This document shows positions 26,693-57,660 of a stretch of DNA of 64,000 nucleotides, in pieces (the stretch's first letter is position 1; every line of letters starts with the position of its first letter). Source of the DNA: an uncultured Chitinophagales bacterium (GTDB lineage: Bacteria > Bacteroidota > Ignavibacteria > UBA10030 > F1-140-MAGs086); the NCBI GenBank assembly GCA_964358705.1, contig CAYHPL010000012.1:39247-103246 (forward strand), given 5' to 3'. Both the position numbers and the translations under genes were made by a program. The notes beneath the pieces were generated by a model. It was not told the DNA's origin and ran no database searches. It was given only the letters and a program-made list of their open reading frames with translations.

Positions 26693-26751
26693 GGAAAATT
26701 TGTTGACCTTAAAAGATAATTTTAATGATTTTTTTATTTAGAGATAATTCA

Positions 26752-29700
26752 ATGAAGCACGAGAATTTTTTTAGTTTAAAGGCGTTACTTTCAATAGTCA
26801 TTACAATCATAATAGTGTTATTGATCTGTTTTGAACAAAGTATTTCAAAAAATAAAGTGAGAAAGAACAATCTCTTTAAAAATAATAAGATTAAAAGCGA
26901 TGTTATTGAAAAGGATACAATGGTATTAAGAAAAAGTTCCGTTCTTAATATTGGCAATGTCTCTGCGCGTATCTCTAACGGTGCAACACTTGGATATGAT
27001 AGATGGGGAGAAAGCTATGAATTTCCAAGAAGAAGCGGCATTACATATCATTGGACTATTGCGCCTCTTATTGGAGCAATGAAAAAAGATTCTTTAGGAT
27101 TAGTGACAAAGAAATTTGTCGCAAGTGGTACTCGTGGTGCGGCACGCTTTAGTGAAGAAGAATTTTCACCATTAATCGGATATGATGCTGGTTACGAAAA
27201 TGCAGGTCAAAATATTGGTATTGCGTTTAGTGATAAACCAGAATCTTGGCCGACCAATTGGCCTTTAGGACCCAATGAATTCCCAGTTGATTCTACTGGT
27301 CGTTTTACTTATCCATCATTCAAAGGTATAGCAAACGGTACCGTAATGGCTCCAAGAGAGGCATATTTTGTTGTATGCGATAATGATTCGAGCTCTGGCT
27401 ACTTTAATGTACCGCAGCCGATGAATATCAGAGTTGATGTGTGGGCAATGCAATATGAACAGAGGGACATAGTAAATAAAAATGTCATTATTTATCGCCA
27501 TGTTATTCGTAATATAGGAACAGACACACTTTTCAATGTTTATGTAGGCGTGCACGATGATCCGGATTGCCCTGAGCAAGGTACTGCAGAATGGACGGAT
27601 GATTTTGCCGCGTTTATAAAAGAAGGAGAAGATGTTTCGGGGTATCCGCAAAAGAGCGATTCACTTTTGTGGAATTTCGTTTACACGTGGGATGGAGATA
27701 ATCTTTCAGCTGGGTTTGTCGAAGATGGAGTTGGCTGGGCGGGAATAAAATTTTTGGAAACACCTCAAAACCTCATAACAGGTCAACAGAGTGGAATAAC
27801 GACTCTGCAAGTATTTGAATATAGCAATTCACCACAAACGGAAGAGGGAGAATATGAGCAACTCGCAGCAGGAATTATACCTCCGGATAATATTTTCCCA
27901 CACCCTAACGATTATACTCAAACACCGAATTCTTATGGGCCTGATGTTACTGTCGTTGCATCATCAGGACCTTATACAATTTTTCCAGGAGAAAAACTTC
28001 AATACAGCTATGCGGTCATTCATGGAAAAAACAAAAATGAATTATTTCAGACTGCAATGAATTGTCAGATGATTTTCAAGCAAAATTTTCATGCACAATC
28101 AATTTATATGCAGAGTTTTACCGTTGACTACATTTCTCCTTTAATGACTATAATCCGTTGTGTGATAAATGCAGAAAACTCAGATGCTGCTTCTATAAAC
28201 TGTTACTTTAAAAAATACGATTCTGTTGTAGTATCACAAATGCTGCTGTACGATGACGGAAATCATGATGATGGAGAAGCAGGAGATAAAATTTTTGGAA
28301 ATTCATTATCTCTTCTTCCTCAAAATGCTGGATTAAAACTTGATGTGGATGTTCTGTTCTTAAATAATTATAATTACACGTCGTATGATGTTATGCAAAA
28401 TATAAGTACGGCTGATGTAGATATTTCTAACTTAATTGTTGCATCAGATAATCTCAACGACGATGGTATTGTAAACCCGGGAGAAAATATTCGTTACACG
28501 TTTACACTTTCAAATAACTCCAACGAAAATTTTTCGCATTTACAGTTGCAATCATCAGTAGAATCCAAAAAAATATTAATTGCTAACCTTAGTGCGCAGT
28601 CAATATTGAATTTTATCTATGATTCAACCAATGCACAGTCTTATTTCTCTTTTAATGTCCCATCGAATTATTCTGATTCTATTTTTTCAATAATTATAAC
28701 CATGAGTGATTCAAATCAGAATCAATGGCTAGACACATTGAAGTTTCTTGTAATTCCATCTACATTGCAACATTATGGAAGTACCATAAACCATATTGGC
28801 GGTTATAGTGATTGGGAGTTTAAAGTGCGGATTGTTGATTCTACCATTGCCATCAATCACTCCTATGAAATCACTATCAATGATTCAATTGATTCATTGG
28901 GTAACAAAGGGTTTACCTTGAAAGATATAACAACAGGAGCACTCTTGTTACAAAACTCTGCACTTCCCGATGAATTTGCACATAATATCCCAGTTATTGA
29001 TGGATTTAAAATAATGCGAGGAGACAAATGGGGCTCCATAGGCCTGTGGAATGATTCCGTACGTTGGCTTGGAGAAAACGGTTCTTTATGGTTCCGTGGT
29101 TTTCGCTTTAAAGATGATTTCGATTTGTATTCAGCATTCAATGGAGGAGTTACAATTGGTTCTTCACTTTCTCTGTATTCTACACCATTTGGAAATTTTA
29201 TTTCGTCATCATTTCGACCAAGCGAATCATATACGGTTAAAATCTTATTTGATACGAGCAATACGCAGAAGGCATACAGATTACGTAGGTCATCAAATGG
29301 ATATACTATTCAATCGTCAAATCCGTTTGTTTCTTTACCGTTCACTGTTTGGGATATTCAGAATTCATCAAACCCAAGACAACTGACCGTTGCGTGGATA
29401 GATTCATGGCCAATTGTGAATGGAAATAGTATTTGGGATCCTGCCATTGGAAATGATCGCAATGAAATAATATTCATTTATAATAAATCATATGACTCAA
29501 CGGGATTATTACAATTTAGTATGCCTCCTAATGCCATTCCAAATGAAGCAACAATAGGATTTAAAGCAGATATAATGTATGGGCTTTCACTTGCTATAGA
29601 TTCAGGACATGCGTTAAACGAAAATTCTGGAGCCTTATATCTGCGTCCCTATATGTCAATTACATCTCGTGATACATTTACATTTAATCCGACAATATTG

Positions 29701-29988
29701 AATGTTTCATATATCGAAGTTCCATTGAATTTTGCATTATATCAAAATTATCCCAATCCGTTTAATCCGATTACAACAATCCGTTTTTCAATACCCCAAC
29801 AAGAACACATTAAAATAAAAATTTATGATATACTTGGCAAAGAAATCGTAACTATAATTAATGATATGATGGAAATGGGTGAATATCAAATTCAATTTCA
29901 CGCTGGAAATTTTGCTTCCGGAATATATTTCTATCGCTTAGAAGCGGGAAAATTTTTTGATACAAAAAAAATGTTGTTGCTAAAGTAA
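26752..29988 (+). CDS. Large secreted protein with T9SS C-terminal sorting domain (function unknown)
   Basis: Signal peptide. C-terminal LYQNYPNPFNPITTIRFSIPQQEHIKIKIYDILGKEIVTI...GIYFYRLEAGKFFDTKKMLLLK T9SS CTD. ~1078 aa. Confidence 0.75.
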   Translation: MKHENFFSLKALLSIVITIIIVLLICFEQSISKNKVRKNNLFKNNKIKSDVIEKDTMVLRKSSVLNIGNVSARISNGATLGYDRWGESYEFPRRSGITYHWTIAPLIGAMKKDSLGLVTKKFVASGTRGAARFSEEEFSPLIGYDAGYENAGQNIGIAFSDKPESWPTNWPLGPNEFPVDSTGRFTYPSFKGIANGTVMAPREAYFVVCDNDSSSGYFNVPQPMNIRVDVWAMQYEQRDIVNKNVIIYRHVIRNIGTDTLFNVYVGVHDDPDCPEQGTAEWTDDFAAFIKEGEDVSGYPQKSDSLLWNFVYTWDGDNLSAGFVEDGVGWAGIKFLETPQNLITGQQSGITTLQVFEYSNSPQTEEGEYEQLAAGIIPPDNIFPHPNDYTQTPNSYGPDVTVVASSGPYTIFPGEKLQYSYAVIHGKNKNELFQTAMNCQMIFKQNFHAQSIYMQSFTVDYISPLMTIIRCVINAENSDAASINCYFKKYDSVVVSQMLLYDDGNHDDGEAGDKIFGNSLSLLPQNAGLKLDVDVLFLNNYNYTSYDVMQNISTADVDISNLIVASDNLNDDGIVNPGENIRYTFTLSNNSNENFSHLQLQSSVESKKILIANLSAQSILNFIYDSTNAQSYFSFNVPSNYSDSIFSIIITMSDSNQNQWLDTLKFLVIPSTLQHYGSTINHIGGYSDWEFKVRIVDSTIAINHSYEITINDSIDSLGNKGFTLKDITTGALLLQNSALPDEFAHNIPVIDGFKIMRGDKWGSIGLWNDSVRWLGENGSLWFRGFRFKDDFDLYSAFNGGVTIGSSLSLYSTPFGNFISSSFRPSESYTVKILFDTSNTQKAYRLRRSSNGYTIQSSNPFVSLPFTVWDIQNSSNPRQLTVAWIDSWPIVNGNSIWDPAIGNDRNEIIFIYNKSYDSTGLLQFSMPPNAIPNEATIGFKADIMYGLSLAIDSGHALNENSGALYLRPYMSITSRDTFTFNPTILNVSYIEVPLNFALYQNYPNPFNPITTIRFSIPQQEHIKIKIYDILGKEIVTIINDMMEMGEYQIQFHAGNFASGIYFYRLEAGKFFDTKKMLLLK

Positions 29989-32533: not shown

Positions 32534-32632
32534 AGGAAAATGGTTGTGTTAAAGGTTTGTCTGTTTGTGCACATAAAAATCGCGGCAAAATTTATCGAAA
32601 TCCTTCAACAACTTTCGCAGAAAATCATTCTC

Positions 32633-32674
32633 TTAAAAAAAATTATGAATGAGCGGGATGTGCTATTCATTCAT
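32633..32674 (-). terminator. Rho-independent terminator closing the long minus-strand operon
   Basis: On the minus strand ATGAATGAA..13 nt..TTCATTCAT is followed by AATTTTTTTT. Lies 13 nt after the DUF2461 stop. Confidence 0.65.
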
Positions 32675-32686
32675 CTCTTTGTAATA

Positions 32687-33403
32687 TTATCCCGCTTTTC
32701 CCAGCGCTTCATTTAAGAAGCGCACGAGCGGTAATCCGTCTGCATACACAGCAACGACATTGGCGATAAATTTTTTGGAATAACATTCTTTCTCTTCCCA
32801 CGTAACCATCGTAAAAAATTGTTTGAGTTTCAGCCATTCTGCCATCGGGTGGTCAACACTGTATCCCATCGGAATGCGTTGCAATTTTTCTCCTTCAATT
32901 TTTCCTCCGAATCTTTTTTTGAATTGCTTGCTTTGTATGATGGTAAGAAATTCATCAGCGTTGTTTGCAACAGCGGAGCGGATGAGTTTTAACTGCGCTC
33001 CGTCCGGCATATAAATTCCGCCGCCGAGAAAAATTTTCCCCGGTTCAATGTGCAGATAAAATCCTGCGCTGTTTTGCCAGTGTCCTTTCGGATGAAAGAT
33101 TGCCGCCGCGTGTGTTTTGTATGGAGTTTTATCTTTGCTGAATCTCGTATCGCGGTAAATGCGAAACATAGAGCGTTTCACATCCGCTTCAATATCCGGC
33201 GCGTGATGCTGAAACTCTGCCTTCATTGCAACAATCAATGAGAGCATCGGAAGTTTTACATTTTCTTCGTATGCAATTTTATGCTCTGTAAACCACTCGC
33301 GGGTGTTATTTTTTTTCAATTGTTTTAAAAATGCAATTCCCTCTTTGGGAAATCCTTCAAAAGGTGGATACATTGCTATTTCAGGAAGAAGGGGAGTTTT
33401 CAT
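32687..33403 (-). CDS. DUF2461 / TIGR02453 family protein
   Basis: Conserved ...IYRDTRFSKDKTPYKTHAAAIF... block typical of TIGR02453. Start placed at MKTPLL. Confidence 0.65.
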   Translation of the reverse strand: MKTPLLPEIAMYPPFEGFPKEGIAFLKQLKKNNTREWFTEHKIAYEENVKLPMLSLIVAMKAEFQHHAPDIEADVKRSMFRIYRDTRFSKDKTPYKTHAAAIFHPKGHWQNSAGFYLHIEPGKIFLGGGIYMPDGAQLKLIRSAVANNADEFLTIIQSKQFKKRFGGKIEGEKLQRIPMGYSVDHPMAEWLKLKQFFTMVTWEEKECYSKKFIANVVAVYADGLPLVRFLNEALGKAG

Positions 33404-33425
33404 ACGTGTAATTTTTTTATGGTGA

Positions 33426-34010
33426 TTATTTTCTTTCAATGAGCGCCATACCGCATTTCGGACAGGATTCTGCTTTATCAGAAATAATTTCCGGATGCAT
33501 CGGACATACATACAGCATTTGTTGCTGCACCATCGTTTCTTCAATGACAAAAAATTTCCATTCATTCCCGATTTTTTTCCGCACATCAGAATAAACTGCG
33601 CTTATTTCCATTGGCTCTGCAATATTTTTGAGTTTCATTTTTATCGAATATTTTCCGAATCCGGATACAATACTATCCGCAAGAATACGATATTCAACGG
33701 GTTCAATGTGCATTTCCAGAATTTGCTCTACCTGTGAAAATGCATCGCGCATCCATTTCTTATTTGCATCATAGCCGCGATAAATATTACCCAACGCATC
33801 TACCCACAGCAATTCATCCGATTGCACAAGATGACTGCTCGCCGCTTCTGCGTTATGATTTTTATAAGCATCAAACATCAGCGAATCGAGAATTCTGTTC
33901 TCTGCAATTATTTGCTCCTTTGGCACGCGAGCAGATTCATCTTGCCCGCAGCCGGAGTAAAATAAAACGGATGTACACATAACAGTGTATAAGAAAATAA
34001 GATAGTTCAT
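33426..34010 (-). CDS. Lipoprotein with NTF2-like (SnoaL/DUF4440-like) domain and C-terminal heavy-metal-binding domain (HMBD)
   Basis: Lipobox LFYSGC. C-terminal YVCPMHPEIISDKAESCPKCGMALIE (YxCPMHP..CPxCGMxL HMBD motif). Confidence 0.6.
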   Translation of the reverse strand: MNYLIFLYTVMCTSVLFYSGCGQDESARVPKEQIIAENRILDSLMFDAYKNHNAEAASSHLVQSDELLWVDALGNIYRGYDANKKWMRDAFSQVEQILEMHIEPVEYRILADSIVSGFGKYSIKMKLKNIAEPMEISAVYSDVRKKIGNEWKFFVIEETMVQQQMLYVCPMHPEIISDKAESCPKCGMALIERK

Positions 34011-34036
34011 ATAAGAAGTATAGTTAAGTGATGGGA

Positions 34037-35257
34037 TTATTTAAAAAATGTATCGGGCTCTATCCATTGTGTTCGCACCATTATTTCTTTTCCCGGTGTT
34101 GTCCATGCAATAAATATTTTTCCATTGTACGATGCCATTTTCGGATAGCCGCTTCCGCGTGATGCATCAATGACAGAAATAATTTTTGAATTTGTTTTTC
34201 TTCCATCAGGAAATATTTTGCGTATACGCAATTCAGTGTCCTCTTTATTTTGCTCAAGCCAACTGACGAGAACACCTCCCTCTCTGAGCCAAACAGCGTG
34301 TACACGTCCGAGTGAAAGAGAATCATCAACACGCATCGGAGATGAAAAAGTTTTTCCTTCATCCGCAGAAAAAACGATGCGCACTTCGGGAGAATTATCG
34401 GGCGCGGTGAACCAGACAACAGCAACATTTTTTCCTTCTCCTGCAAGCGAGGGACCATTTACAGGACAACCGGCAATATTCCAGTTATCATTATATATCG
34501 CTTTTGGTGCACTCCATTTTCCGTTTTCATACCGGACGACATTTATGTTCCGAATTTCTTCTGCGCTTCTGTCGCGATAGGCAACGATAACGCCGTTCTC
34601 CGTTTTCAATGCTGATGTCGGACAACACTCGCATACACGGGAATCAAGTATCATTTCATTTGCTGAAAATGAAGTTGAAGTAAATGAAGCAGAGTATAAA
34701 TACATATCGCCTCCATGCTGTTCATCGTGCGATGATTCTTCTTCGCTTTCCTGCGGCATAAATCTTCCATCAAGCCAAACCATTCCGTGCGTATTTTCCG
34801 GCGTTCGGTAAAACGAAACAAATCCGTGCTCGCCATGGCTTGAATCTTTGTGTGCGATTATTCCACCCGTCCACGTTTTTCCGTGATTGTAAGAAAAACT
34901 TACTTTCACATTGTAATCGTACGTTCCTCGTCCGCTTTTTTCAAGATAATGCACCGCAAGCGTATCGCCTCCAAGAGAGTAGAGCGAAGGAAAATCCGCC
35001 CAATTCAAAAAAAAGTTGCTCGAGGATACAATTGTTACTGGCGAACTCCATTGTTCTTTGTTCAATTCAGAAAAAAGCAAGTGTTTATCTGCGCCATTTA
35101 CTTCGAACCACGTCATTGCAAGATGGTTGTTCTCCACGAGGAGATTTGGAAATTTACTTCCGCTTTTTACAGGTGGTGTTTGTCCGAACAGCACACTCGT
35201 TGTTGTAAATACGCAGAATAGTAATGGAAGCACGATACTTGTGAGAACATATTTCAT
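34037..35257 (-). CDS. Secreted BNR/Asp-box repeat protein (sialidase-like beta-propeller)
   Basis: Signal peptide. Asp-box-like SYNHGKTW and SADEGKTF. An unusual CECC motif. Confidence 0.55.
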   Translation of the reverse strand: MKYVLTSIVLPLLFCVFTTTSVLFGQTPPVKSGSKFPNLLVENNHLAMTWFEVNGADKHLLFSELNKEQWSSPVTIVSSSNFFLNWADFPSLYSLGGDTLAVHYLEKSGRGTYDYNVKVSFSYNHGKTWTGGIIAHKDSSHGEHGFVSFYRTPENTHGMVWLDGRFMPQESEEESSHDEQHGGDMYLYSASFTSTSFSANEMILDSRVCECCPTSALKTENGVIVAYRDRSAEEIRNINVVRYENGKWSAPKAIYNDNWNIAGCPVNGPSLAGEGKNVAVVWFTAPDNSPEVRIVFSADEGKTFSSPMRVDDSLSLGRVHAVWLREGGVLVSWLEQNKEDTELRIRKIFPDGRKTNSKIISVIDASRGSGYPKMASYNGKIFIAWTTPGKEIMVRTQWIEPDTFFK

Positions 35258-35299
35258 ATTGGTAAAATTCGGTTGTAGAATATTATTGGAAATAATTTT

Positions 35300-36691
35300 T
35301 TATTCTGCAGAAATTAACTTTGATGCAAGTACAGAAAATATTTCTGTTGCATCAATACGTTTTGGCAAAGGAGTGCTACAGATGAGTACGGGAAAATCAC
35401 TGTCATCTTCCGGTATTCTTCCGTGTGAACCTTTGACCAACGTTGCGTCAAGTGGAATTACATCCATCAAATACCGAAAGCCGAGTTTCTTTTTCAGGAG
35501 TTTCATTCCAACCGTGAACAGAGGCAGGGAAATATTTGGATTGAGAATAAGTTCAGCCGGGTCATAGCCGGGTTTACGATGGATGTCAACTGTTCTTGCA
35601 AAATCCGGTGCAAGATTGTCATCCAGCCAGTAATAATATGTGAACCATGAATTTTTATCAGCAATACAAATGAAATCTCCCGCACGCTCGTGTTGCAGAT
35701 GGTATGTATTTTTTCCTTTTTCATCGAGAATTGTTTCGATGCCTTTTATTCGTTCAAGAATTGCTCGTACTTGGGAAATTTTATTTTTATCATTTACATA
35801 CACATGTGCAATCTGATGGTCGGCAACAGCAAATGCCGCGCTTGCACCTGCGTCGAGAAGTTCCAATCCCTGTTCATCGCGAACTGCGAGCATATTATTT
35901 TCACGAAGAATTCTGTTGATATGTACGGGAGAATGTACATCGGTGATGCCGTATTCGGAAAGAAGAATCACTTCGACATCGCGGGACTCGTAAAATTTTA
36001 CTAACTCTTCACAAACAGTATCAATTTCAATTAAATCTTTTTGAATGAGAGAAAAATTATTTCCGTAGCGCTGAAGATTGTAGTCGAGATGGGGAAGATA
36101 AATCAATGTCAATGTTGGCGAATACATTTCTTCCGTAATCACAGAAGCATCTGCAATCCACTGCGATGAACGAATTGAAGTTTTCGGACCCCAGAAATCG
36201 AAGAGCGGAAATATGCCAAGTTTATTTTGCAATATATTGCGAAGTGTGGCAGGCGAAGTATAAATGTCGGGAAGTTTTTTTCCGTCAGCGTGATATTGCG
36301 GGCGTGGCGTTAAGGAATACTCAACCGCAGAATACATATTATACCACCAGAATAAATTAGCGCACGTAAATGCGGGATTATTTTCTTTGAGTATTTCCCA
36401 GATTTTTTTTGTCTGTACAAGTTTATTCGACTGCCGCCAGAACTTTACTTCACACTCGTCTTTAAAATACCATCCGTTGCCAACTATGCCGTGTTCATCG
36501 GGGTATTTCCCCGTAAGAAATGTTGCCTGCGCAGAGCACGTAACAGCAGGAAGCATCGGCTGAATAACACTGATATTTCTTTTTGCAGTTAACGCAGAAA
36601 GAAACGGAGTGTGAACGCCGATAAGTTTTTTTGTGAGTCCGACAATGTTTATTACAACAATTCTTTTCATTGCAAATGTTGTAAAGTCCAT
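35300..36691 (-). CDS. eboF: EboF-like alkaline phosphatase family protein (nucleotide pyrophosphatase/phosphodiesterase)
   Basis: AlkP-core metal-site region (…LPAVTCSAQATFLTGKYPDEHGIVGNGWY…). Last gene of the ebo cluster order. Start may be the internal MKRIVV (36670), giving an ATGA overlap with eboE. Confidence 0.65.
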   Translation of the reverse strand: MDFTTFAMKRIVVINIVGLTKKLIGVHTPFLSALTAKRNISVIQPMLPAVTCSAQATFLTGKYPDEHGIVGNGWYFKDECEVKFWRQSNKLVQTKKIWEILKENNPAFTCANLFWWYNMYSAVEYSLTPRPQYHADGKKLPDIYTSPATLRNILQNKLGIFPLFDFWGPKTSIRSSQWIADASVITEEMYSPTLTLIYLPHLDYNLQRYGNNFSLIQKDLIEIDTVCEELVKFYESRDVEVILLSEYGITDVHSPVHINRILRENNMLAVRDEQGLELLDAGASAAFAVADHQIAHVYVNDKNKISQVRAILERIKGIETILDEKGKNTYHLQHERAGDFICIADKNSWFTYYYWLDDNLAPDFARTVDIHRKPGYDPAELILNPNISLPLFTVGMKLLKKKLGFRYLMDVIPLDATLVKGSHGRIPEDDSDFPVLICSTPLPKRIDATEIFSVLASKLISAE

Positions 36692-37833
36692 TCCAATTCA
36701 CGTGAAATAGATTCTTCGAGAGGAAGACGCTCTGTTGGCGGCAGAACTTCCCATGTGTATGTTTCTACTTCGAAATGATTGGTAAATTTATTCATACGTT
36801 GTTTGTAGAATAGTGCAAGAATATCTTCCTGCGTGGAATTAATTGTACCATACGATTGCATAAAAACAGGAATGTGATAGTGTATTCTCCATTCGTTTGC
36901 ATCCGTTGTAAAAATATTCTCAAGCGCTTGATGTAAATCCTGATAATGCAAAAATTCTCCGGAAGATTTTTTTTCAATTGTCTGATGAAGGTATGAAGAT
37001 TCAGCAAACGGCAGGAGAATTTCGTACAATTTTTTTCTTTCATCTTTTTCTTTCGGAAGAAATACATTGAGCGCTGCGCTGATTTGCACTTTGCCAATTT
37101 GAATTCCTTCATTGGTAAATTTTTGTATTGCCTCGTCTGGTAGTTCATATCCAACGGCAAAATGGCACGCATCATAACAAATGCGAATATGTTCGCGTAT
37201 TATTTCTTCATCTTCTCCCAATAAATAATTTTTGAAAAAATCTATCGCTTCATCTGTGTTTTCAATTACACCGTCTGCTTCGGGTTCTATGTCAAGATGA
37301 AGAACTTGTCCTGATTCTTTTTTTATTTGATGAAGCGCATTCGCGACAATTTTGATATTGTTTGCAGACGATGCGAAAACATTTTTAACATCGTTTTCAT
37401 TTTTACACCAATGTCTGTACGATAATGGTGAAGTGGAAATACCGCCATCAATACCAGCGGGAAGAAGTTGTGAAAGAATGTGAAACATTCGTAAGGTAAA
37501 ATCTTTTCTTGCATCCGTGCTCCAGTCCGGAGCGTGTACATTATCTTTCACGACGACATTGTGAAAACCGCCAAATACAAATCCATTGATGGTAAAAACA
37601 TAGAGGTCGTTTTCATGAAGCCAGTCTTTAAAAGACTCTAATGTGCTGTTGAAAAGAAGTTCTCTGCTTGCAATATCTGAAAGACGCAATCCTACACCGA
37701 AAGCGTTATGCGGTGAAATTTTTTTTTTAATGCGTGGGACAGAAATTTTCAATGCAGAAAAAATATCTTCCCAATGCTCTCCTGAATGGATATTGGTGCA
37801 ATAGGTGAGATGTGCTGATGAGCTAATTTTCAT
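36667..37833 (-). CDS. eboE: EboE-like TIM-barrel protein (xylose isomerase-like; metabolite traffic protein EboE)
   Basis: ~390 aa with N-terminal YCTNIHSGE. Position between the DHQS-like gene and the phosphodiesterase gene, as in the ebo operon. Confidence 0.6.
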   Translation of the reverse strand: MKISSSAHLTYCTNIHSGEHWEDIFSALKISVPRIKKKISPHNAFGVGLRLSDIASRELLFNSTLESFKDWLHENDLYVFTINGFVFGGFHNVVVKDNVHAPDWSTDARKDFTLRMFHILSQLLPAGIDGGISTSPLSYRHWCKNENDVKNVFASSANNIKIVANALHQIKKESGQVLHLDIEPEADGVIENTDEAIDFFKNYLLGEDEEIIREHIRICYDACHFAVGYELPDEAIQKFTNEGIQIGKVQISAALNVFLPKEKDERKKLYEILLPFAESSYLHQTIEKKSSGEFLHYQDLHQALENIFTTDANEWRIHYHIPVFMQSYGTINSTQEDILALFYKQRMNKFTNHFEVETYTWEVLPPTERLPLEESISRELEWTLQHLQ

Positions 37834-38959
37834 TGCGAAGCAGTGCAACAGATTTTTTAATTAAACGCTTATCCATCGAATGTGTTTCAATTCCTGTGCC
37901 GATTTTTTTCAGCAGCATAATTGTAAGAACGCCGCCAAGATGCTCGCGGAATTCATCAAGTCCTTTCAATAATTCAGGATTATCAAATGCTTCCTGATAA
38001 ATTTTGAATCCGAAATTTTTTAATGCAGAAAGTATGTTTCGCCAATCCCGCTCTTCAAGTATTCCGCTCAGATAAGAATACGTGCTGTCAAGAGCGATTC
38101 CGCAGGCAACCGCTTCACCGTGCCTGATTTTAAAATTGGTAATTTGTTCAAGTTTGTGCGCAGACCAATGGCCAAAATCAAGCGGTCGCGATGTACCTGA
38201 TTCAAATGGGTCTTTTCCTGCTATGTGATTGATATGGATTTCCGCGCAGCGATGAATGAGTTGTTGCATAGCATTCATATCACGACGGAGAAGTTGTTCT
38301 GTTTGCGATTCAATAAATCTGAAAAAATTTGCATCTTTGATTAATCCGACTTTTATCGCTTCAGCAATTCCCGAACGCCAGTCGCGAAAGTCAAGAGAAG
38401 TGATAAATGAAAAATCGTTGATGACAGCAAACGGAGGAGAAAATGTTCCAAGGAAATTTTTTTTTCCGAAATAATTAATACCGTTTTTCACACCAATGCC
38501 GGCATCATTTTGCGAAAGCACTGTTGTGGGAATTCTGATGAGACGTATGCCGCGATGTGCAACAGATGCGGCGAATCCAACAGTATCAATCAGCGCTCCG
38601 CCTCCAACTGCGACAATATACGAATGGCGGCAAATGCCGTATTGTTCAACGAGAGAAATAATTTTTTCGAATGATGTTTTATTTCTCTTTGATTTTTCTC
38701 CGCCGGGAAGCGTGAGCGGGCGGCAACACAATTCAAAAACATCTTTATTTTTTTTGCAGTAAGAAGTAATTGCATCGCTGAGTTTTGGAAACCATCGTTC
38801 CACTTCGCTGTCAATAAAGAAAATAATTTTTCTTCTCTCGTTGCGATTATCCGTTGCAACAACATCGCGAAGCGAAGAATTATGTACATCAAAAATATTT
38901 TCGGTAAATACAACCGGATAAGTAAACGTTACGGAAAATTTTTGGAATATCGTTTGCAT
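37823..38959 (-). CDS. eboD: EboD-like 3-dehydroquinate synthase family protein
   Basis: DHQS-family motifs VGGGALIDTVGFAA, RGIRLIRIPTTVLSQNDAGIGVKNGIN. Confidence 0.75.
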   Translation of the reverse strand: MQTIFQKFSVTFTYPVVFTENIFDVHNSSLRDVVATDNRNERRKIIFFIDSEVERWFPKLSDAITSYCKKNKDVFELCCRPLTLPGGEKSKRNKTSFEKIISLVEQYGICRHSYIVAVGGGALIDTVGFAASVAHRGIRLIRIPTTVLSQNDAGIGVKNGINYFGKKNFLGTFSPPFAVINDFSFITSLDFRDWRSGIAEAIKVGLIKDANFFRFIESQTEQLLRRDMNAMQQLIHRCAEIHINHIAGKDPFESGTSRPLDFGHWSAHKLEQITNFKIRHGEAVACGIALDSTYSYLSGILEERDWRNILSALKNFGFKIYQEAFDNPELLKGLDEFREHLGGVLTIMLLKKIGTGIETHSMDKRLIKKSVALLRNEN

Positions 38960-38995
38960 TTAAAAAGTAGTGTTCAAAAAAATAGATGAGGGTTT

Positions 38996-39910
38996 TCAGG
39001 TAATTGCAAAAATACGAGAGAGAAAAACGGAAACAGGCAGCAAGGCGGAGATAAGAATACCATATTCAACGCCTGCAAAACCCGCCGCAAGAGAAGCGTT
39101 CATTAAAATTATTGAGAGAACACCGTACTGCACTGCAATGCGGATTTTTTCGGCTGACGGTTCTTTGGTTGCGTTTACAAGCGGTACAAGAGTACATCCG
39201 CTGAAAAGTATAATAAAAGCAAATGCATTTGTTAAATTGAAAACAGGGAGAAGAGCGTATGAAATAAGAGCGAGTATTACTACGTTAAAGAGTGCGAGCG
39301 CTGGAAATAAATTTCTTTTTGTCGCTCCGTGCACTTCTTTTTTGCTCACCAATGTAACTGCGGAAATAAAAACTAAAGGAGCAAAACCGAGAAACCAGAA
39401 TGAAGTTAATTTTTCTGCAATAATGCTCATTCCCAAAAAAAGATTTCCTGCGCGGCACATTCCCATATTTAATGGTGCCAATAGTGTGTGTTTGAAAAAT
39501 GCGTTGTAACCAAGCGCGAGAAGCGCTACCGCAAAAGCAATTGATGCGCTCAATATTGAATTCTGATACGCTGCATAAATTCCCAAAAGAAGAAGTACTA
39601 TGCCAAATATACTTGCTGTTGTTACCGTAGCAAGTCCTCGTGGAATCGGTCGCTCGGGACGTTCTTTTTTATCAAGTTCTGCATCAAACACATCATTGAA
39701 AATAATTCCGCCTGCGTACAGACATGTTGTTGAAAGAATGAGCCAGCTGATTTTTGATGACAATGAAATTGGAAAATAATTTTCCTGTGCAGTAAAAATA
39801 CCGGAGACTGCAACTCCCGCAAGAATATCGGATATTGCTGTAATTATGTTAGCAGGACGTGCAAGTCGTATGTATGCAACAACTTTTTCTCCCAACGTCG
39901 GAGTATTCAT
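38996..39910 (-). CDS. eboC: EboC-like UbiA family prenyltransferase
   Basis: Polytopic membrane protein with NDVFDAELDKKERPERPIPRG (NDxxDxxxD prenyltransferase motif). Confidence 0.8.
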   Translation of the reverse strand: MNTPTLGEKVVAYIRLARPANIITAISDILAGVAVSGIFTAQENYFPISLSSKISWLILSTTCLYAGGIIFNDVFDAELDKKERPERPIPRGLATVTTASIFGIVLLLLGIYAAYQNSILSASIAFAVALLALGYNAFFKHTLLAPLNMGMCRAGNLFLGMSIIAEKLTSFWFLGFAPLVFISAVTLVSKKEVHGATKRNLFPALALFNVVILALISYALLPVFNLTNAFAFIILFSGCTLVPLVNATKEPSAEKIRIAVQYGVLSIILMNASLAAGFAGVEYGILISALLPVSVFLSRIFAIT

Positions 39911-40815
39911 GAAATGATTTTCGATTGTTTTCTTTCATGAAGTGGTGATTGCCCTCCGCGTAATATTGTGCTTCCTTCAAATTTTCTTGTGCGGTCAATG
40001 GTTTCGGTTTTCATCCAATCTGCTTCCTGCATTTGTCCGCTTTGTCCGAATGCAAGCAATGCGTTGTTATAACACACATTCTGAACATCTTCTTCTGCAA
40101 TGCCGCGCTCAAGCATCAGTGACGCAGTTTTTGGTAATGCAAGCGGGTCACTGATTCCCCAATCTGCGGCGCTGTTTATCATAATGTTTTTGCTGCCATA
40201 CATTTTTACAATTTCTACCATACGCTCGTTTCCCATTTTTGTAAACGGATAAATAGTAAATGCAGCCCAAAATCCGCGCTCAAGAACTTCCTTCACTGTT
40301 TCTTCATTGTTGTGGTCAACGATTACCATATTTGGCGGAATATTGTGTTCGTTGCAAACATCCATACTGCGCGATGTTCCTTTCTTTTTATCGCGGTGAG
40401 GTGTATGAATCTGTACGGGCAACTTTATTTCTTTTGATAGTTCAAGTTGCAGGCGAAAATATTTATCTTCCGCATCTGTTTGGTCATCATAGCCGATTTC
40501 CCCGACGCCGACAACACCTTCTTTGCAAAGATACAGCGGAAGAATTTCCATTACCTGTTCAGCGAGCACTTCATTATTTGCCTCTTTGGAATTAATACCG
40601 ATTGTGCAGTAATGTTTTATGCCAAATTGCGATGCGCGAAATCGTTCCCATCCGATGAGTGAACTAAAATAATCACGAAACGTTCCAATTTCTGTTCGCG
40701 GCTGTCCTAACCAAAATGCCGGTTCGATGATTGCTACAATTCCGGCTTCAAACATTACTTCATAATCGTCTGTCGTTCGTGAAGTCATGTGAACGTGCGG
40801 GTCAATAAATTTCAT
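39907..40815 (-). CDS. eboB: EboB-like TatD family hydrolase
   Basis: MKFIDPHVHM metal-binding N-terminus of TatD-family TIM-barrel hydrolases. 4 nt overlap with eboC. Confidence 0.75.
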   Translation of the reverse strand: MKFIDPHVHMTSRTTDDYEVMFEAGIVAIIEPAFWLGQPRTEIGTFRDYFSSLIGWERFRASQFGIKHYCTIGINSKEANNEVLAEQVMEILPLYLCKEGVVGVGEIGYDDQTDAEDKYFRLQLELSKEIKLPVQIHTPHRDKKKGTSRSMDVCNEHNIPPNMVIVDHNNEETVKEVLERGFWAAFTIYPFTKMGNERMVEIVKMYGSKNIMINSAADWGISDPLALPKTASLMLERGIAEEDVQNVCYNNALLAFGQSGQMQEADWMKTETIDRTRKFEGSTILRGGQSPLHERKQSKIIS

Positions 40816-40841
40816 AAATCACTGATACAAATAAAAAAAAA

Positions 40842-41810
40842 TTATGGATTCAAAGTAAGTATTTCTTTTCCGAGCGCATTCCATGAAAAAGAATCGTTGA
40901 GATTTTCATTCTGCAATGTGATGAGATTTTTTTTTGCTTCGGGAAAATTGCATTGCGTACAAACAAGCGCTGCCGCTTTTTGTTCGAGAATATTGTTGCT
41001 CATTGCCAGTTTGTGAATGTCTGTAATATTCTTTTCGTCCACAAACGGAACGACACATCGCCAAAGTTCCGGCGTTACTGTTCTTCCCGCCGCCCAGCGT
41101 TCATGCACATAATCAATAAGTGTATCACAGAGACTCTTATTCACTCGTTCATCAATGCCAATTATGCGGAACAACGGACGATTAATAAAAATAGCTTTTA
41201 ATACCAATTGATTCCACGCATTTTCAGAAAAGAAATCCGCTGGGTACGGATTTTCAAGTGCGATTGCATCGAAGACATCACGCATATTGGAGCGCACGCC
41301 TTCTGCGGCAAGTAAAACAAATTCTTCCGGAAATGGCAGTAACGGCAATGAAGAATAAATTGCCGCTAACTCTGCAATATCCGCAGAAGTAATAAGAGAG
41401 CGCACAGATTGCACAAAAGCAGAATCATTTTCTCTGAAGTAGCTCAGCAAAAAAATAATTCTTGCCGCTCTGTCTACAGTATATAAAGTTGGATTCCAGT
41501 TTTTGCGAAGAAAATTTGCTTCTTCTAATCGTTGAGAACTAAAATGTAGTTTTTCTTTTCCAACAAAACGAGGGGCAGCGCTAAACGCAAGATAAAATTC
41601 TTTTTGCGAAAAAATTGCACTGCTTTTTTCTCTCAGCCACTGTGTGCCATCTTGCGGCGATACAGCAGATACTGATTGGAGCAAAAAATCTTTTACTTCA
41701 TTCAAATCGCACTGGTAAATATTTTCGTTCATTCTGTATGTTCTTATTGTACTGATAATCAGGGACGACAAAAAAAATGCAGAGTCTGACAATAAAATCG
41801 GACTCTGCAT
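40842..41810 (-). CDS. eboA: EboA family protein
   Basis: ~300 aa hypothetical protein at the head of the TatD-UbiA-DHQS-TIM-AlkP series. The assignment rests on operon position. Confidence 0.5.
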   Translation of the reverse strand: MQSPILLSDSAFFLSSLIISTIRTYRMNENIYQCDLNEVKDFLLQSVSAVSPQDGTQWLREKSSAIFSQKEFYLAFSAAPRFVGKEKLHFSSQRLEEANFLRKNWNPTLYTVDRAARIIFLLSYFRENDSAFVQSVRSLITSADIAELAAIYSSLPLLPFPEEFVLLAAEGVRSNMRDVFDAIALENPYPADFFSENAWNQLVLKAIFINRPLFRIIGIDERVNKSLCDTLIDYVHERWAAGRTVTPELWRCVVPFVDEKNITDIHKLAMSNNILEQKAAALVCTQCNFPEAKKNLITLQNENLNDSFSWNALGKEILTLNP

Positions 41811-41818
41811 TTATATTG

Positions 41819-43270
41819 TTACTTTACGTTCTTGAGAATTGTTAATAAAAATTTCCAGAATTTATCTACCGTATCAATGTGCAGTCTTTCATCCGGTGAA
41901 TGAACGCCTTCCATTGTTGGTCCGAAAGAAACCATATCCATACCGGGACAACGTTCACCAATAATACCGCATTCCAATCCTGCATGAATTGCTTTTACTG
42001 CGGCATTTTTTTTGTAAAGAGATTTGTAGGAAGTCTGCGCGACTTTTAAAATTTCGGATTGCATATTCGGTTTCCATCCGGGATAACCATCAGATGTTGT
42101 TATGTTTGCTCCGCCAAGTTCAAAAATATTACGAACGGTTTCACAAATTTCTTCAATTTCCGATGCAACGGAACTGCGCTGACTTGTTGCAATTGCTATT
42201 GTTTTCTTATCCGTCGTAATTACTGCAACATTCGTTGAAGTTTCAACGAGCCCGGAAATATCCGCGCTCAATTTCATTACGCCGTGCGGTAATGCGGAAA
42301 TGGTTTGCATCACTTTTTTCTGTACGGATTTCTTCACAACTTTTCCCTTTGATTTAACAGATACGATGGAAATTGTTAAATCCGGTTCTGCAGTAGAAAG
42401 TTCTGCCTTGATTATTTTTTGCATTTCTTCCACAACGAGCATTGCATTATTCACAGATTTTTTCGGAACAAACAGCAACGCATCACATTCGCGCGGAATT
42501 GCATTGCGCTTATTTCCGCCATTGATAGTTGAAAGTCGTGCGCCCAATGCAGAAAGTTTTACAAGAACGCGATTCAGTATTTTTATTGCATTGCCGCGTC
42601 CCTTATCAATTTCCAATCCGGAATGTCCGCCTTTTAACCCGAATACTTTCAATTGCATAGCGGAAGTATTTGCGGGAGAATTTTCCGCTTCTGTATTCCA
42701 CGTTCCGGTGGTGTCGCGACCGCCGGAACAGCCAACGTACAACGCGCCTTCTTCTTCGCTGTCAAGATTCATCATTGTTTTGCTTTGCACAAAATCGCGC
42801 GCTAAATTGCTTGCGCCGGTCAATCCTGTTTCTTCATCAATGGTGAAAAGAAGTTCAAGCGGACCGTGTTCAAGCGATTTGTCTTCCGCAATCGCAAGCA
42901 TTGTTGCAACTGCGATGCCATTATCCGCGCCGAGTGTTGTGCCGTTTGCCATCAGCATATTGCCGTTTACGACAAGTTCAATGGCGTCTTTCATAAAATC
43001 AAATTTCTTGTCAGAATTTTTTTCGCACACCATATCAAGATGTCCCTGCAAGCAGAGCATCTTTACATTTTCTTTTCCCTTCGAAGCAGATTTTGTAATC
43101 AATACGTTGCCGAACGAATCTTTTTTTGCCGGTAAGCCGAGTTTTTTTGCTGTATCGAGAACGTATGCGATGATGCGTTCTTCGTGTTTGGATGGACGTG
43201 GAACTTTTGCGATTTCCGCAAAATATTTCCATACGAGTTTTGGTTGTAAACCTTCAATTGCATTTGCCAT
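41819..43270 (-). CDS. pepD: Aminoacyl-histidine dipeptidase (Xaa-His dipeptidase, M20C family)
   Basis: N-terminus MANAIEGLQPKLVWKYFAEIAKVPRPSKHEERI matches PepD. 483 aa M20 fold. Only 8 nt upstream of eboA. Confidence 0.8.
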   Translation of the reverse strand: MANAIEGLQPKLVWKYFAEIAKVPRPSKHEERIIAYVLDTAKKLGLPAKKDSFGNVLITKSASKGKENVKMLCLQGHLDMVCEKNSDKKFDFMKDAIELVVNGNMLMANGTTLGADNGIAVATMLAIAEDKSLEHGPLELLFTIDEETGLTGASNLARDFVQSKTMMNLDSEEEGALYVGCSGGRDTTGTWNTEAENSPANTSAMQLKVFGLKGGHSGLEIDKGRGNAIKILNRVLVKLSALGARLSTINGGNKRNAIPRECDALLFVPKKSVNNAMLVVEEMQKIIKAELSTAEPDLTISIVSVKSKGKVVKKSVQKKVMQTISALPHGVMKLSADISGLVETSTNVAVITTDKKTIAIATSQRSSVASEIEEICETVRNIFELGGANITTSDGYPGWKPNMQSEILKVAQTSYKSLYKKNAAVKAIHAGLECGIIGERCPGMDMVSFGPTMEGVHSPDERLHIDTVDKFWKFLLTILKNVK

Positions 43271-43295: not shown

Positions 43296-43367
43296 GGGAG
43301 AAAATTGTTATAAAAAAGCGGGAGAAAACTACTGAAAAATGAAGGGAGAATCAAATAGTTTTTGCGC
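43296..43367 (+). repeat. 24 bp-periodic direct repeats with GGGAGAA cores
   Basis: GGGAGAA at 43296, 43320 and 43344 (exactly 24 bp apart) with ~17/24 identity between units. Lies 25-100 nt upstream of the pepD start (opposite strand). Confidence 0.5.
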
Positions 43368-43953: not shown

Positions 43954-45327
43954 ATGCTAACAAAAGAATATATAAAAGAACTAAAGACCATCGGCAACGG
44001 TGCAATAGGACACCTTGTTAAAGAGTATAGGGATAGCGGTTCATTAACTTTTATTCTTGAAAGTTTAGGACATCTTCCAAGTGATTTTGATGGTACTTTT
44101 CTACCCGACTTATTACATCACAAAAGTTCATCAGTTCGACTTTGGGCTATTAAAACACTTGGCAAACTTGATAATGACGACTATTTAAAAATTTTGCGAC
44201 AAGCAGCGTTCACAGAAAAAGACACGAATGTCAGACGTGAAGCCGTTTCTTCAATTGGAAGAATGAGAAGTAAAAAAGGCCAAACAATTCTTTTTGAAAT
44301 TTTGCAAGACCAAGACCCGAAAGTGATAAGTCAAGCAATCAGAGGGCTTTTAGTTTTCAAAGGCGACAAAGAAGTTGATGAACATTTAAAGCCACTTATA
44401 AATCACCCAAATGAAATGGTGAGGACGGTTATTTATAAAGAATATTTTGCAGAAAAAAAAGTCCAAACAGAACAACCTCATAAGGAAAGTTTCGACTATT
44501 TAAAAAATGTTGTAGTAAATGCGGACACTATTGAAACGATGAAATTGCTCAAAGAAGAAAGCGTTCATTTAACTTTCACATCTCCGCCATATTACAATGC
44601 AAGGGACTATTCAATTTATCCGAGTTACAAGCATTACATAGAATTTCTTGCAGAAGTTTTCAGAGAAGTTTATCGTATCACTAAAGAAGGAAGATTTTTA
44701 ATTCTCAACACATCTCCAATCATAATTCCAAGAATAAGTCGTTCACATTCAAGCAAGCGTTATCCAATTCCGTTTGACATTCATCCATACTTAATGGAAA
44801 TGGGATGGGATTTCATTGATGATATTGTATGGTTGAAACCAGAAGCAAGTGTAAAAAATCGCATTGGTGGTTTTATGCAACACCGAAAACCATTAGGATA
44901 CAAACCAAATTCTGTAACTGAATATTTAATGGTGTATCGCAAGGGTACAGAAAAACTTTTGGATTGGAACATCAAACAATACGATTGGAAGACAGTGAAA
45001 GAAAGTAAAGTTGCAGATGGTTACGAAACAAATAATGTTTGGAAAATAGACCCTTGCTTTGATAAAATTCATTCAGCCGTTTTTCCTGTTGAACTATGCA
45101 AACGAGTAATTCAATATTACTCCTTCAAAGGTGATTTAGTTTTTGACCCATTTGGAGGAAGCGGGACAGTAGGCAAGACCGCAAAAAGTTTAGTCAGGTA
45201 TTTTTTCCTTACGGAAAAAGACAAAAAATATTTTGATTATATGAAATCCAAAAAATCAAATGGAATGTTTGATGAGCATCCTACCAAATTTTTAACCCTT
45301 AACGATTTTCATCAAACAATAAAATGA
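43954..45327 (+). CDS. DNA methyltransferase (beta-class N6A/N4C amino-MTase) with N-terminal HEAT/PBS-lyase-like repeat domain
   Basis: C-terminal half has motif IV FTSPPYYNA (SPPY) preceding motif I VFDPFGGSGTVGKTA, the beta-class order. N-terminal ~170 aa has repeated ~30-aa units (SSVRLWAIKTLGKL, TNVRREAVSSIGRM, DPKVISQAIRGL, NEMVRTVIY) typical of HEAT-like repeats. Confidence 0.65.
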   Translation: MLTKEYIKELKTIGNGAIGHLVKEYRDSGSLTFILESLGHLPSDFDGTFLPDLLHHKSSSVRLWAIKTLGKLDNDDYLKILRQAAFTEKDTNVRREAVSSIGRMRSKKGQTILFEILQDQDPKVISQAIRGLLVFKGDKEVDEHLKPLINHPNEMVRTVIYKEYFAEKKVQTEQPHKESFDYLKNVVVNADTIETMKLLKEESVHLTFTSPPYYNARDYSIYPSYKHYIEFLAEVFREVYRITKEGRFLILNTSPIIIPRISRSHSSKRYPIPFDIHPYLMEMGWDFIDDIVWLKPEASVKNRIGGFMQHRKPLGYKPNSVTEYLMVYRKGTEKLLDWNIKQYDWKTVKESKVADGYETNNVWKIDPCFDKIHSAVFPVELCKRVIQYYSFKGDLVFDPFGGSGTVGKTAKSLVRYFFLTEKDKKYFDYMKSKKSNGMFDEHPTKFLTLNDFHQTIK

Positions 45328-46229
45328 CACTAACAGAACAAGTAGCCAAAAACATTATAAAAAAACTTTTGAAAGGTGCTGATTACCGAATTGAAGTTGT
45401 AACCCTCATCAATGCGGAATTTTTGCAATTCGCAATAGAGTTTTTCAAAAAAATTATTGATGCTAAACTTCAAAGCAAAAACATAACTGTTGATTGGTAT
45501 AAGGAAGCGTTTCTTAATCCGAAATTACCAGCAAATGAAATTGCAATCAATTCAGGATTGAACAAAAAGACCATTCACAATATGTTCAATTCATCTACAA
45601 AGGAAATTGTGATTGATGCAGCAAATGAACATTACGATATTCTTTATCAAAGCATAAAAGATTTAGTTGAAACTGAACACGAATTAGATTTAACTCTCAC
45701 TATAAAATTCAAAGGTGTTTCAGTTGACTTGAATGTAAGTGAAAGTTTAATCGTGATTAATACACTTGCAGTAAAACGAGCTGAACTTCGTGGTGGACTT
45801 TGGAGCACGGCAGGGAAGAGAGTTGAAAATCCGTTAATGCAAACACTTTGTAAATTGTATTCAGTAAACGAAGAAAATTACAGAGCAAAATTTGTCAAAG
45901 ACAAAGCAAAAGGATTTGATAGAGAGATAGATTTTTATTTGCTCAAAGATAGAAAAGAATTTTTGTGCGAAGTAAAATTAATGGGTAGCGGAAATCCTGA
46001 AAGTGCTGATGCTGTAATTGCAAGAGCAACAAATGTTTTTGTTGCAGACAAACTCTCACTTCAAAATAAAAGTCAACTTGAAAGTTTGAAAATAAATTGG
46101 ATTGAATTGCGAAGTGAAAACGGTTGGAAGCGTTTTAAAATCGCATTGGAAAATTTAGAAATACCACATAAGGATTATAACGGAAATTTAGATAATGACC
46201 TTGATAAAATATTTGCGGAGATATTTTGA
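45324..46229 (+). CDS. Putative PD-(D/E)xK nuclease (candidate cognate restriction endonuclease)
   Basis: 301 aa. Start overlaps the MTase stop (ATGA). GFDREIDFYLL...EFLCEVKLMG fits a D...E-x-K catalytic motif. No other recognisable family signature. Confidence 0.35.
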   Translation: MTLTEQVAKNIIKKLLKGADYRIEVVTLINAEFLQFAIEFFKKIIDAKLQSKNITVDWYKEAFLNPKLPANEIAINSGLNKKTIHNMFNSSTKEIVIDAANEHYDILYQSIKDLVETEHELDLTLTIKFKGVSVDLNVSESLIVINTLAVKRAELRGGLWSTAGKRVENPLMQTLCKLYSVNEENYRAKFVKDKAKGFDREIDFYLLKDRKEFLCEVKLMGSGNPESADAVIARATNVFVADKLSLQNKSQLESLKINWIELRSENGWKRFKIALENLEIPHKDYNGNLDNDLDKIFAEIF

Positions 46230-48692: not shown

Positions 48693-49061
48693 TCACGTCA
48701 CTCGCACCACAAATCCATCTTTTTCCATTTTCAAAATAAACACTGCGATGCGTCCGTAAATAGTATCTTCGGTTTCGTTGAATTGTACGCGCATCTTCTC
48801 TGCAATTTCGATGAGCGTCGTGTTGCCGTCGCAATTGTTCCATATAAAACTTCCACGTTCATCAAGTTTTACGCGAAAGTTTTTTTTCTTGAGCAGCGGA
48901 ACGAGCCATTGCACCATAAACGCATTGCGGAATTTCGGAATAAGAAGAACTATATTGCCGTTTGTTCCTGTTTCATATTGCAGATTGCGGCGATACGTTA
49001 ATTCAAAAATATTTTCTTCGGAGGTATTTTCTATTGTGTCAGTCATAGTATAAAAAAACAA
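48693..49061 (-). CDS. PqqD-family-like small protein (RiPP-recognition-element-like)
   Basis: …VKLDERGSFIWNNCDGNTTLIEIAEKMRVQFNETEDTIYGRIAVFILKMEKDGFVV fits the PqqD pattern (IW..DG..T..EI...L...F......D...F...L...G.V). Likely start is the internal M (49046). Confidence 0.45.
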   Translation of the reverse strand: MFFYTMTDTIENTSEENIFELTYRRNLQYETGTNGNIVLLIPKFRNAFMVQWLVPLLKKKNFRVKLDERGSFIWNNCDGNTTLIEIAEKMRVQFNETEDTIYGRIAVFILKMEKDGFVVRVT

Positions 49062-51167: not shown

Positions 51168-51223
51168 AATTTTTTCCTATGATGGTGTGAAAATAGAATT
51201 GTGAGTTAAAAAATAAAATTTAT

Positions 51224-52132: not shown

Positions 52133-52243
52133 CTCAGAGACAACTAATAACTACGTTGAGAACAATTTACGATAATATCATATCGTATCTTAAAAAAATA
52201 ATGACACAATATAAGAGATTTTGGAATTTGCAGTTGAAAAATT

Positions 52244-53719: not shown

Positions 53720-53754
53720 TGAGATTAAGTAGCTAATTTTTAGTAATTATTTTT

Positions 53755-55482: not shown

Positions 55483-55504
55483 TATAGTATTTTAAAAATT
55501 ATTT

Positions 55505-57649: not shown

Positions 57650-57660
57650 AAATATTTATT

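Follow-up and report, generated by a model that had tools for sequence, protein, structure and literature searches.

A known ebo cassette between pepD and putative copper-handling genes in a groundwater Ignavibacteriales bacterium

The ebo cassette and its described relatives

The genes eboABCDEF form a cluster described from Bacteroidota (Yurchenko et al. 2016, PMC5133447), including Maribacter sp. MS6 (PMC9235831), and its transfer between phyla has been documented (PMC5133447). Homologous genes lie beside the scytonemin operon of Nostoc punctiforme, where ebo was earlier given a role in export (Klicki et al. 2018, PMC6282210), and form the core of the EDB cluster of Pseudomonas fluorescens NZI7, a nematode repellence system to which, in the account given in PMC12904256, lineage-specific extras have been added, some of them with signal peptides. 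Here we analyse a complete ebo cluster from an uncultured Ignavibacteriales bacterium of groundwater, carried within a 64,000-nucleotide (nt) stretch of contig CAYHPL010000012.1 (hereafter the window). It is part of a co-directional minus-strand run of ten genes (32687-43270) that begins with the dipeptidase gene pepD, continues through eboA-F and the genes for a BNR protein and a lipoprotein with an HMBD tail, and ends with a DUF2461 gene (Table 1). A previous, sequence-only reading of the window had taken the run to be one operon. We consider it, with a probability of about 0.8, to be three unrelated units that point one way: pepD, a known ebo cassette, and a copper-type gene pair with DUF2461.

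The notion that ebo moves a precursor to the periplasm, which framed the sequence-only reading, has been superseded by work on the meroterpenoid thallusin (bioRxiv 10.64898/2026.05.21.724671; PMC11567786 as cited in PMC12904256). A preprint of May 2026 ties the presence of ebo to thallusin: of the 35 strains tested, drawn from four phyla, 27 made the compound, as did two cyanobacteria with ebo; L-aspartate was incorporated into it, deletion of eboB, eboC, eboE or eboF abolished it, and the Nostoc export phenotype is regarded as possibly indirect (bioRxiv 10.64898/2026.05.21.724671). The same work assigns no enzyme to the oxidative step from saccharoquinoline to thallusin, a product that chelates metal, and its main text does not mention Ignavibacteria (bioRxiv 10.64898/2026.05.21.724671). 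The product of EboD is reported in PMC11567786, as cited in PMC12904256, and EboC homologues farnesylate hydroxyquinaldic acids (PMC9235831).

Profile searches bore out the earlier family calls for pepD, EboA-F, the BNR protein, the HMBD and DUF2461. The six middle genes are, as had been recognised, a complete ebo cluster: six co-directional, full-length open reading frames (ORFs; 41732-35300) in the canonical order A-B-C-D-E-F, which matches that of Bacteroidota reference loci, with EboC, EboD and EboE scoring over the curated cutoffs of their models. EboA falls below the cutoff of the full-length EboA subfamily model NF035937 (257 against 320), and PF28008 (EboA) is recorded in the precomputed matches for an identical contig in the ENA. 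EboB shares 66-78% identity and its position with the eboB product of nearly all ebo loci that have one. EboC carries the Asp-rich motif NDVFDAELD at residues 72-80, eboE was called with the same length of 388 amino acids (aa) on contig L082, and EboF is 59-68% identical to the eboF products of 80 other ebo loci.

Genes, order and coupled overlaps are the same as in the Bacteroidota clusters, including that of Maribacter sp. MS6, in which EboC is also known as Ubi-297 (PMC9235831). Identity to the Ebo proteins of Chitinophagales, Cytophagales and Flavobacteriaceae ranges from 35 to 78%, depending on the gene, and to those of Nostoc punctiforme from 43 to 70%. Unlike the Bacteroidota clusters, the one in the window resides in an uncultured groundwater Ignavibacteriales host and in another chromosomal context. 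Both Nostoc punctiforme and the window have a gene for an exported protein of propeller type in the vicinity of ebo; in Nostoc, however, eboD is inverted and the neighbours are scy genes, nothing in the Nostoc ebo flanks resembles the BNR protein, and no scy-like or BNR-like gene is common to the two loci. Judged from its sequence, eboA-F of the window is an intact and apparently translationally coupled copy of a widely transferred cassette, and the locus is an already described cluster in a new host.

The gene set by which the preprint recognises thallusin/saccharoquinoline producers is present in the window, and all four required ORFs are full length. Following the literature on homologues, EboB, EboE and EboF would help to turn a cyclitol and L-aspartate into a hydroxylated quinaldic acid, and EboC would farnesylate this acid to give a saccharoquinoline/thallusin-type meroterpenoid. 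By homology with these systems, a compound of this type is the most likely product of the cassette.

The pepD terminator and the junctions of the run

The co-directional run from pepD to DUF2461 was confirmed from the ORFs, which number ten on recount and not the eleven counted before. Several starts had to be moved. The start proposed earlier for eboA (41810) is an ATG that falls within the 5' arm of a hairpin stem; we place the start at 41732 because of that hairpin, because the identical ENA contig carries a 296-aa gene call that agrees with it, and because the conserved alignment with eboA of contig L089, from a sister lineage (70% identity), opens at the 41732 ATG. With this start, the spacing between pepD and eboA is 86 nt and not 8 nt. 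The eboE and eboF starts were corrected to 37833 and 36670, and that of DUF2461 from 33586 to 33403, which yields a protein of 238 aa. The junctions after pepD-eboA measure, in order, +26, -4, +36, -11, -4, +42, +26 and +22 nt.

The pepD-eboA junction is occupied by an intrinsic terminator. Immediately 3' of the stop codon of pepD, the coding strand carries AAAUGCAGAGUC, a loop, GACUCUGCAUUU and U8, forming a hairpin of 12+3 base pairs (bp) in which the first three bases of the U8 run pair within the stem. Folded alone, this element has a free energy (dG) of -23.7 kcal/mol and a z score of -7.5, and none of 200 shuffles equalled it. It is the strongest terminator in the region, the only strongly structured junction of the run and a single occurrence in the window. 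No strong hairpin was found at the other junctions, where folds ranged from 0 to -5.6 kcal/mol with z scores near 0. The terminator and the unstructured remaining junctions argue for pepD being a transcription unit of its own, set apart from ebo. The hairpin past pepD is kept in L089, where the U-tract is not, and no such hairpin follows pepD on two contigs of ebo-less relatives, L084 and L085.

The 3' end of the run is less clearly marked. What had been called a clear terminator past DUF2461 is a moderate element (dG -15.5, z -2.9), with a 7-bp stem, a large interior loop and a U8 run that starts 10 nt downstream, and a scan with a consensus terminator did not pick it up. Since the stretch from eboF to DUF2461 is free of terminators, the BNR, HMBD lipoprotein and DUF2461 genes may be transcribed by read-through from an ebo promoter. 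An Rfam search of the whole window matched no family and thus showed neither a riboswitch nor a leader ahead of ebo or of pepD, the latter of which is preceded by 683 nt of intergenic DNA. A sigma-70 promoter scan was uninformative, with 33 sites where 31 were expected, a background level.

A 30-nt inverted repeat, 77% complementary (32670-32699 and 43314-43343), encloses all ten genes. It is one among 105 such pairs in 11.5 kb and is probably due to chance.

Gene neighbourhoods with and without ebo

An EboF scan of one genome per GTDB species yielded 80 ebo loci, in Bacteroidota and Nostocales, which were taken with 10 kb flanks and searched by tblastn with the ten window proteins; five metagenome contigs brought the set to 85. 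Most of the 80 loci carry eboA-F in the order of the window. None of the 80 has pepD, the BNR gene, the HMBD lipoprotein gene or DUF2461 in its flanks. Across all 85 loci the last three are absent from the surrounding 10 kb and pepD occurs solely in the sister contigs described below, in agreement with the earlier remark that these are unusual neighbours of ebo. The window's flank genes are also missing from another ebo locus labelled Ignavibacteriae (L092/L093; EboF 67% identical): a giant fn3 protein lies to one side of it, and DUF7718, adenine glycosylase and DinB to the other. A stand-alone eboF, 68% identical, lies beside parAB and CTP synthase (L108/L109, 10001-11374); the 10 kb around it contain no further ebo gene, and its Pfam gene table lists no window flank gene nearby; being a single gene in an unrelated context, it was dismissed as a guide to the ancestral state.

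BNR and pepD keep company with each other where ebo is absent. The two closest BNR homologues (70-72% identical) are encoded on contigs L084 and L085, in the window's own chromosomal block: both contigs carry genes for an SMC_N-domain protein, cysteinyl-tRNA synthetase (CysRS; 80%), proline dehydrogenase (ProDH) and the OPT oligopeptide transporter, followed by BNR, a small ORF and pepD (73%). L085 additionally has an upstream amidohydrolase gene and a PqqD-like ORF past OPT, and L084 has DUF2461 (67% identical) 2.2 kb downstream of pepD. No ebo match was found in either contig. The SMC_N-CysRS-ProDH-OPT block is present in the window at 49116-60906. There, however, ebo sits between pepD and BNR, the order of these two genes is opposite, and a restriction-modification pair and a protein with a type IX secretion tail are encoded upstream of pepD.

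Because pepD and BNR are neighbours without ebo, we read their adjacency to ebo in the window as a matter of where the cassette is located and not of shared function. The same observation, and the different flanks of L092/L093, give no support to the suggestion that the flanks reveal what this ebo system makes or where its product goes. Nor, apart from pepD in the sister contigs, were the flank genes conserved beside ebo in related genomes, an outcome that the sequence-only reading had itself named as counting against it. In comparison with the extras of the EDB cluster, as PMC12904256 describes them, those of the window are genes that already adjoined one another, and not additions to the cluster. 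In the arrangement we favour, pepD would encode a cytosolic dipeptidase in a conserved neighbourhood of peptide and amino-acid catabolism (amidohydrolase, SMC_N, CysRS, proline dehydrogenase, OPT) and would end at its own Rho-independent terminator; the ebo cassette would be a second, separate biosynthetic unit; the BNR protein, with its CxCC motif and a further Cys, and the HMBD-tailed lipoprotein would make a third unit, periplasmic and probably copper-handling; and DUF2461 would be an old chromosomal neighbour, to which we assign no role.

Three contigs of a sister lineage (L089, L090 and L091) share 88% identity with the window in pepD, 87% in OPT, 91% in ProDH and 83% in EboF (protein P0122). 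Their order is ProDH-OPT-small ORF-pepD-hairpin-eboA-F, after which comes an HsdR-like gene and not BNR. In these contigs the reading frame is shifted by +1 in eboB and by -1 in eboC, in the same way in two assemblies (L089 5874-7693, L090 2851-4670), in a region that corresponds to 38996-40815 of the window. Between window and sister the ebo proteins are 65-85% identical, against 87-91% for the flanking proteins. On this sequence evidence ebo appears to be pseudogenising in the sister population while it is intact in the window, and the loss of eboB and eboC shows that the cassette is dispensable in the clade.

It is possible, if rather doubtful, that the Ignavibacteriales clade had ebo at this locus from the outset and that the lineages of L084 and L085 lost it by deletion, as opposed to an insertion in the window lineage; the flanks would still be functionally unlinked to it. 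GC content is 0.38-0.40 across ebo and 0.39-0.41 in the flanks, a profile with no compositional sign of recent transfer, and both the loss under way in the sister and the ebo cluster of another Ignavibacteriae-labelled metagenome-assembled genome would fit an ancestral cassette. That second cluster, however, lies in a wholly different context and its EboF, at 67%, is no closer than that of Chitinophagales (68%); transfer of ebo between phyla is documented, as noted above; and the spot has received other insertions, namely the restriction-modification pair of the window (43954-46229, GC 0.335), the HsdR-like gene of the sister and toxin-antitoxin genes in L084. A repeat search for insertion scars brought up no persuasive direct repeat at either end of the cassette.

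It is unlikely that the window's cassette is, as in the sister, a silent or decaying relic without a current product. Such a relic could be expected from the frameshifted eboB and eboC of the sister, from the greater divergence of the ebo proteins than of the flanking proteins, and from the habitat, aphotic groundwater with no algal partner. In the window, however, all six ORFs are full length, the equivalog scores lie well over their cutoffs, the Asp-rich motif and the coupled overlaps are kept, and the identical sequence was recovered on independent contigs from Hainich groundwater metagenomes (Hain_H52). The presence of ebo in aphotic-groundwater Ignavibacteriales without an algal partner argues for a role of the product beyond algal morphogenesis, for example in metal chelation.

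The one-operon model built on the sequence-only reading, in which the ebo product would be processed or taken over in the periplasm by the exported BNR protein and the metal-binding lipoprotein and pepD would supply an amino acid, aspartate for instance, as a precursor, is very improbable. It could draw on the co-direction of the ten genes, on the short, hairpin-free junctions from eboF to DUF2461 (22-42 nt), on the adjacency of pepD and ebo in the sister contigs and on the thallusin pathway itself, with its unassigned oxidation, its metal-chelating product and aspartate as a precursor; it would also resemble the case of Nostoc, where the periplasmic ScyE is needed after ebo (PMC6282210). Yet a strong terminator parts pepD from eboA, and the gene set is not conserved together: BNR, the HMBD lipoprotein and DUF2461 are found in 0 of 85 other ebo loci, the Nostoc flanks hold no BNR-like protein, and the BNR and pepD orthologues adjoin each other in ebo-less relatives, joined in one of them by DUF2461. 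The BNR family, moreover, reaches far past the sampled ebo hosts and tracks copper genes, and the N-terminal domain of the lipoprotein is limited to the window's population, as set out below. The 10.6 kb operon is in our view mostly an accident of location, and it cautions that in ebo biology tight co-directional spacing is no proof of a shared pathway.

Several observations weigh against the division into three units. The adjacency of pepD and ebo is kept in the sole sister lineage that was sampled, and the sister contig stops 4.1 kb past eboF, so that BNR could lie beyond its end. The terminator past pepD could be leaky or regulatory, and no convincing promoter was found within the 86-nt gap between pepD and eboA, which offers only a TACAAT at 41751-41746. 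The gene order pepD-BNR in the window, as opposed to BNR-pepD in the ebo-less relatives, calls for a rearrangement, whether ebo was inserted here or lost from the relatives. Thallusin production has been demonstrated only in other phyla, by a preprint. Finally, the copper role of the BNR family is drawn from gene neighbourhood and motif analogy, and in the closest Ignavibacteriales loci BNR is accompanied by neither HMA nor HMBD genes.

Table 1. Genes and terminators of the run, with the profile match or structure that supports each
Feature	Coordinates	Strand	Evidence
pepD-family M20 dipeptidase, 483 aa	41819..43270	-	TIGR01893 587 bits (cutoff 344)
Intrinsic terminator 3' of pepD	41770..41812	-	stem AAAUGCAGAGUC / GACUCUGCAUUU, then U8
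eboA, 296 aa, corrected start	40842..41732	-	NF035938 EboA_domain 163 bits (cutoff 50)
eboB, TatD-like hydrolase, 302 aa	39907..40815	-	PF01026 61 bits
eboC, UbiA-type prenyltransferase, 304 aa, overlaps eboB by 4 nt	38996..39910	-	NF035940 equivalog 352 bits (cutoff 250)
eboD, DHQS-like sugar phosphate cyclase, 378 aa	37823..38959	-	NF004852 558 bits (cutoff 333); also PF01761, PF24621
eboE, TIM-barrel protein, 388 aa, ATG start, overlaps eboD by 11 nt	36667..37833	-	NF035939 equivalog 464 bits (cutoff 250)
eboF, alkaline-phosphatase/phosphodiesterase family, 456 aa, overlaps eboE by 4 nt	35300..36670	-	PF01663 211 bits
BNR_2 propeller, exported, six-bladed, sialidase fold	34037..35257	-	PF13088 36 bits (cutoff 31.4)
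Lipoprotein-like ORFan, 194 aa, C-terminal HMBD	33426..34010	-	PF19335 55 bits (cutoff 23.6)
DUF2461/TIGR02453 protein, 238 aa	32687..33403	-	PF09365 235 bits
Possible weak terminator 3' of DUF2461	32625..32695	-	GCGGGAU/AUCCCGC stem

With NF011600, the equivalog model for E. coli PepD, the pepD product scores 407, short of the cutoff of 991.

The CxCC propeller, the HMBD lipoprotein and further neighbours

The BNR protein has more than 7000 homologues, which are spread across Marinimicrobia, Ignavibacteria, Acidobacteria and other groups, the nearest of them labelled Ignavibacteriales; it is not specific to ebo. The CECC sequence at residues 209-212 belongs to a CxCC motif whose cysteines (C209, C211 and C212) are invariant, together with a fourth, C264, in an alignment of 30 sequences that also shows further strictly conserved motifs and N-terminal export signals. 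The PF13088 match and an AlphaFold2 model (predicted local distance difference test, pLDDT, 86) give a six-bladed propeller of the sialidase fold with BNR/Asp-box repeats. Its best Foldseek matches in the PDB, NanA and other sialidase-fold enzymes, have template modelling (TM) scores of 0.5-0.6 at about 10% identity, and a PDB sequence search with the protein returned no match at E<=1. As far as the model shows, its likeness to solved sialidases and related enzymes is one of fold level only.

Gene neighbourhoods were sampled in five distant BNR lineages, and in four of the five the BNR gene lies among copper genes (CusAB, CopA, multicopper oxidase, HMA, HMBD, YdjM). One reads CusB(HMBD)-CusA-HMBD-YdjM-HMA-BNR (L099/100), and a second (L102/103) repeats this core but lacks the small HMBD gene and adds a HAD hydrolase and another HMA gene. 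A third reads multicopper oxidase-HMA-HMA-MauG-HMBD-Crp-BNR-CopA ATPase-RND (L104/105), and a fourth YdjM-HMA-BNR (L106/107). A hidden Markov model scan of the 85 ebo loci found HMBD in 0/85 and HMA in 1/85; a strict regular expression for HMBD was dropped since it missed known HMBD genes, and the model was used instead. A metagenome scan with the BNR protein gave five loci, one of which duplicates the contig of L084, and no statistics were drawn from it.

The second member of the pair, the lipoprotein, carries its HMBD motif (CPMHP...CPKCG) at residues 169-187, and sequence matches of this region in the PDB are the N-termini of copper ATPases (8ovl, 3rfu). In two whole-database searches only this 30-residue tail matched anything; nothing homologous to residues 1-155 turned up among 5.8 billion proteins or among 1.84 billion representatives. 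A single-sequence AlphaFold2 model has a pLDDT of 44 overall and below 50 over residues 1-163, and is confident in the HMBD region only. The earlier label of this protein as NTF2-like could not be confirmed, DUF4440 scoring 19.4 bits against a cutoff of 25.2.

A possible parallel for the BNR protein is CopG, a periplasmic copper-resistance protein in which a CxCC motif binds a Cu4 cluster (Hausrath 2020, as reviewed in PMC7558416). The two are alike in the CxCC motif, in export and in linkage to copA and cus genes (copA, cusBA and HMA for the BNR family). CopG, however, has a thioredoxin-like fold whereas the BNR protein is a beta-propeller, which places the latter outside the CopG family and makes the likeness one of analogy only. 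Because of the copper neighbourhoods of the BNR family and the CxCC analogy with CopG, we read the BNR protein and the HMBD lipoprotein as probably a periplasmic copper-handling pair. Irrespective of ebo, the more than 7000 sialidase-like propellers with CxCC are by their gene neighbourhoods a candidate for an unrecognised family of periplasmic copper-binding proteins, and the association of this family with copper genes is the most useful lead from the locus. This reading of the propellers is more likely than their recruitment into the thallusin pathway, in which the propeller and the HMBD lipoprotein, expressed by read-through from the ebo promoter, would act as a copper-dependent periplasmic oxidase/chaperone pair that opens the saccharoquinoline ring to give thallusin or loads the chelating product with metal, a scenario we hold to be very improbable.

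A small PqqD-like ORF past OPT is found both in the window (48693-49061, minus strand) and in L085 (8711-8929), and near a distant BNR homologue a PqqD-like gene occurs with an ATP-grasp gene (L102 9456-9701).

The restriction-modification pair mentioned above (43954-46229, plus strand, GC 0.335) lies between the OPT/PqqD-like block and pepD. It is of type II, and pairs a CfrBI-like endonuclease with an N6/N4 DNA methylase fused to HEAT repeats. Its presence in the window, and that of the HsdR-like gene in the sister, suggests that this is an insertion hot spot.

C-terminal sorting domains of type IX secretion are present in three large proteins of the window, encoded at 26725-29988 (plus strand), 46647-48500 (minus strand) and 60952-63432 (minus strand), consistent with a host of the Fibrobacteres-Chlorobi-Bacteroidetes (FCB) group.

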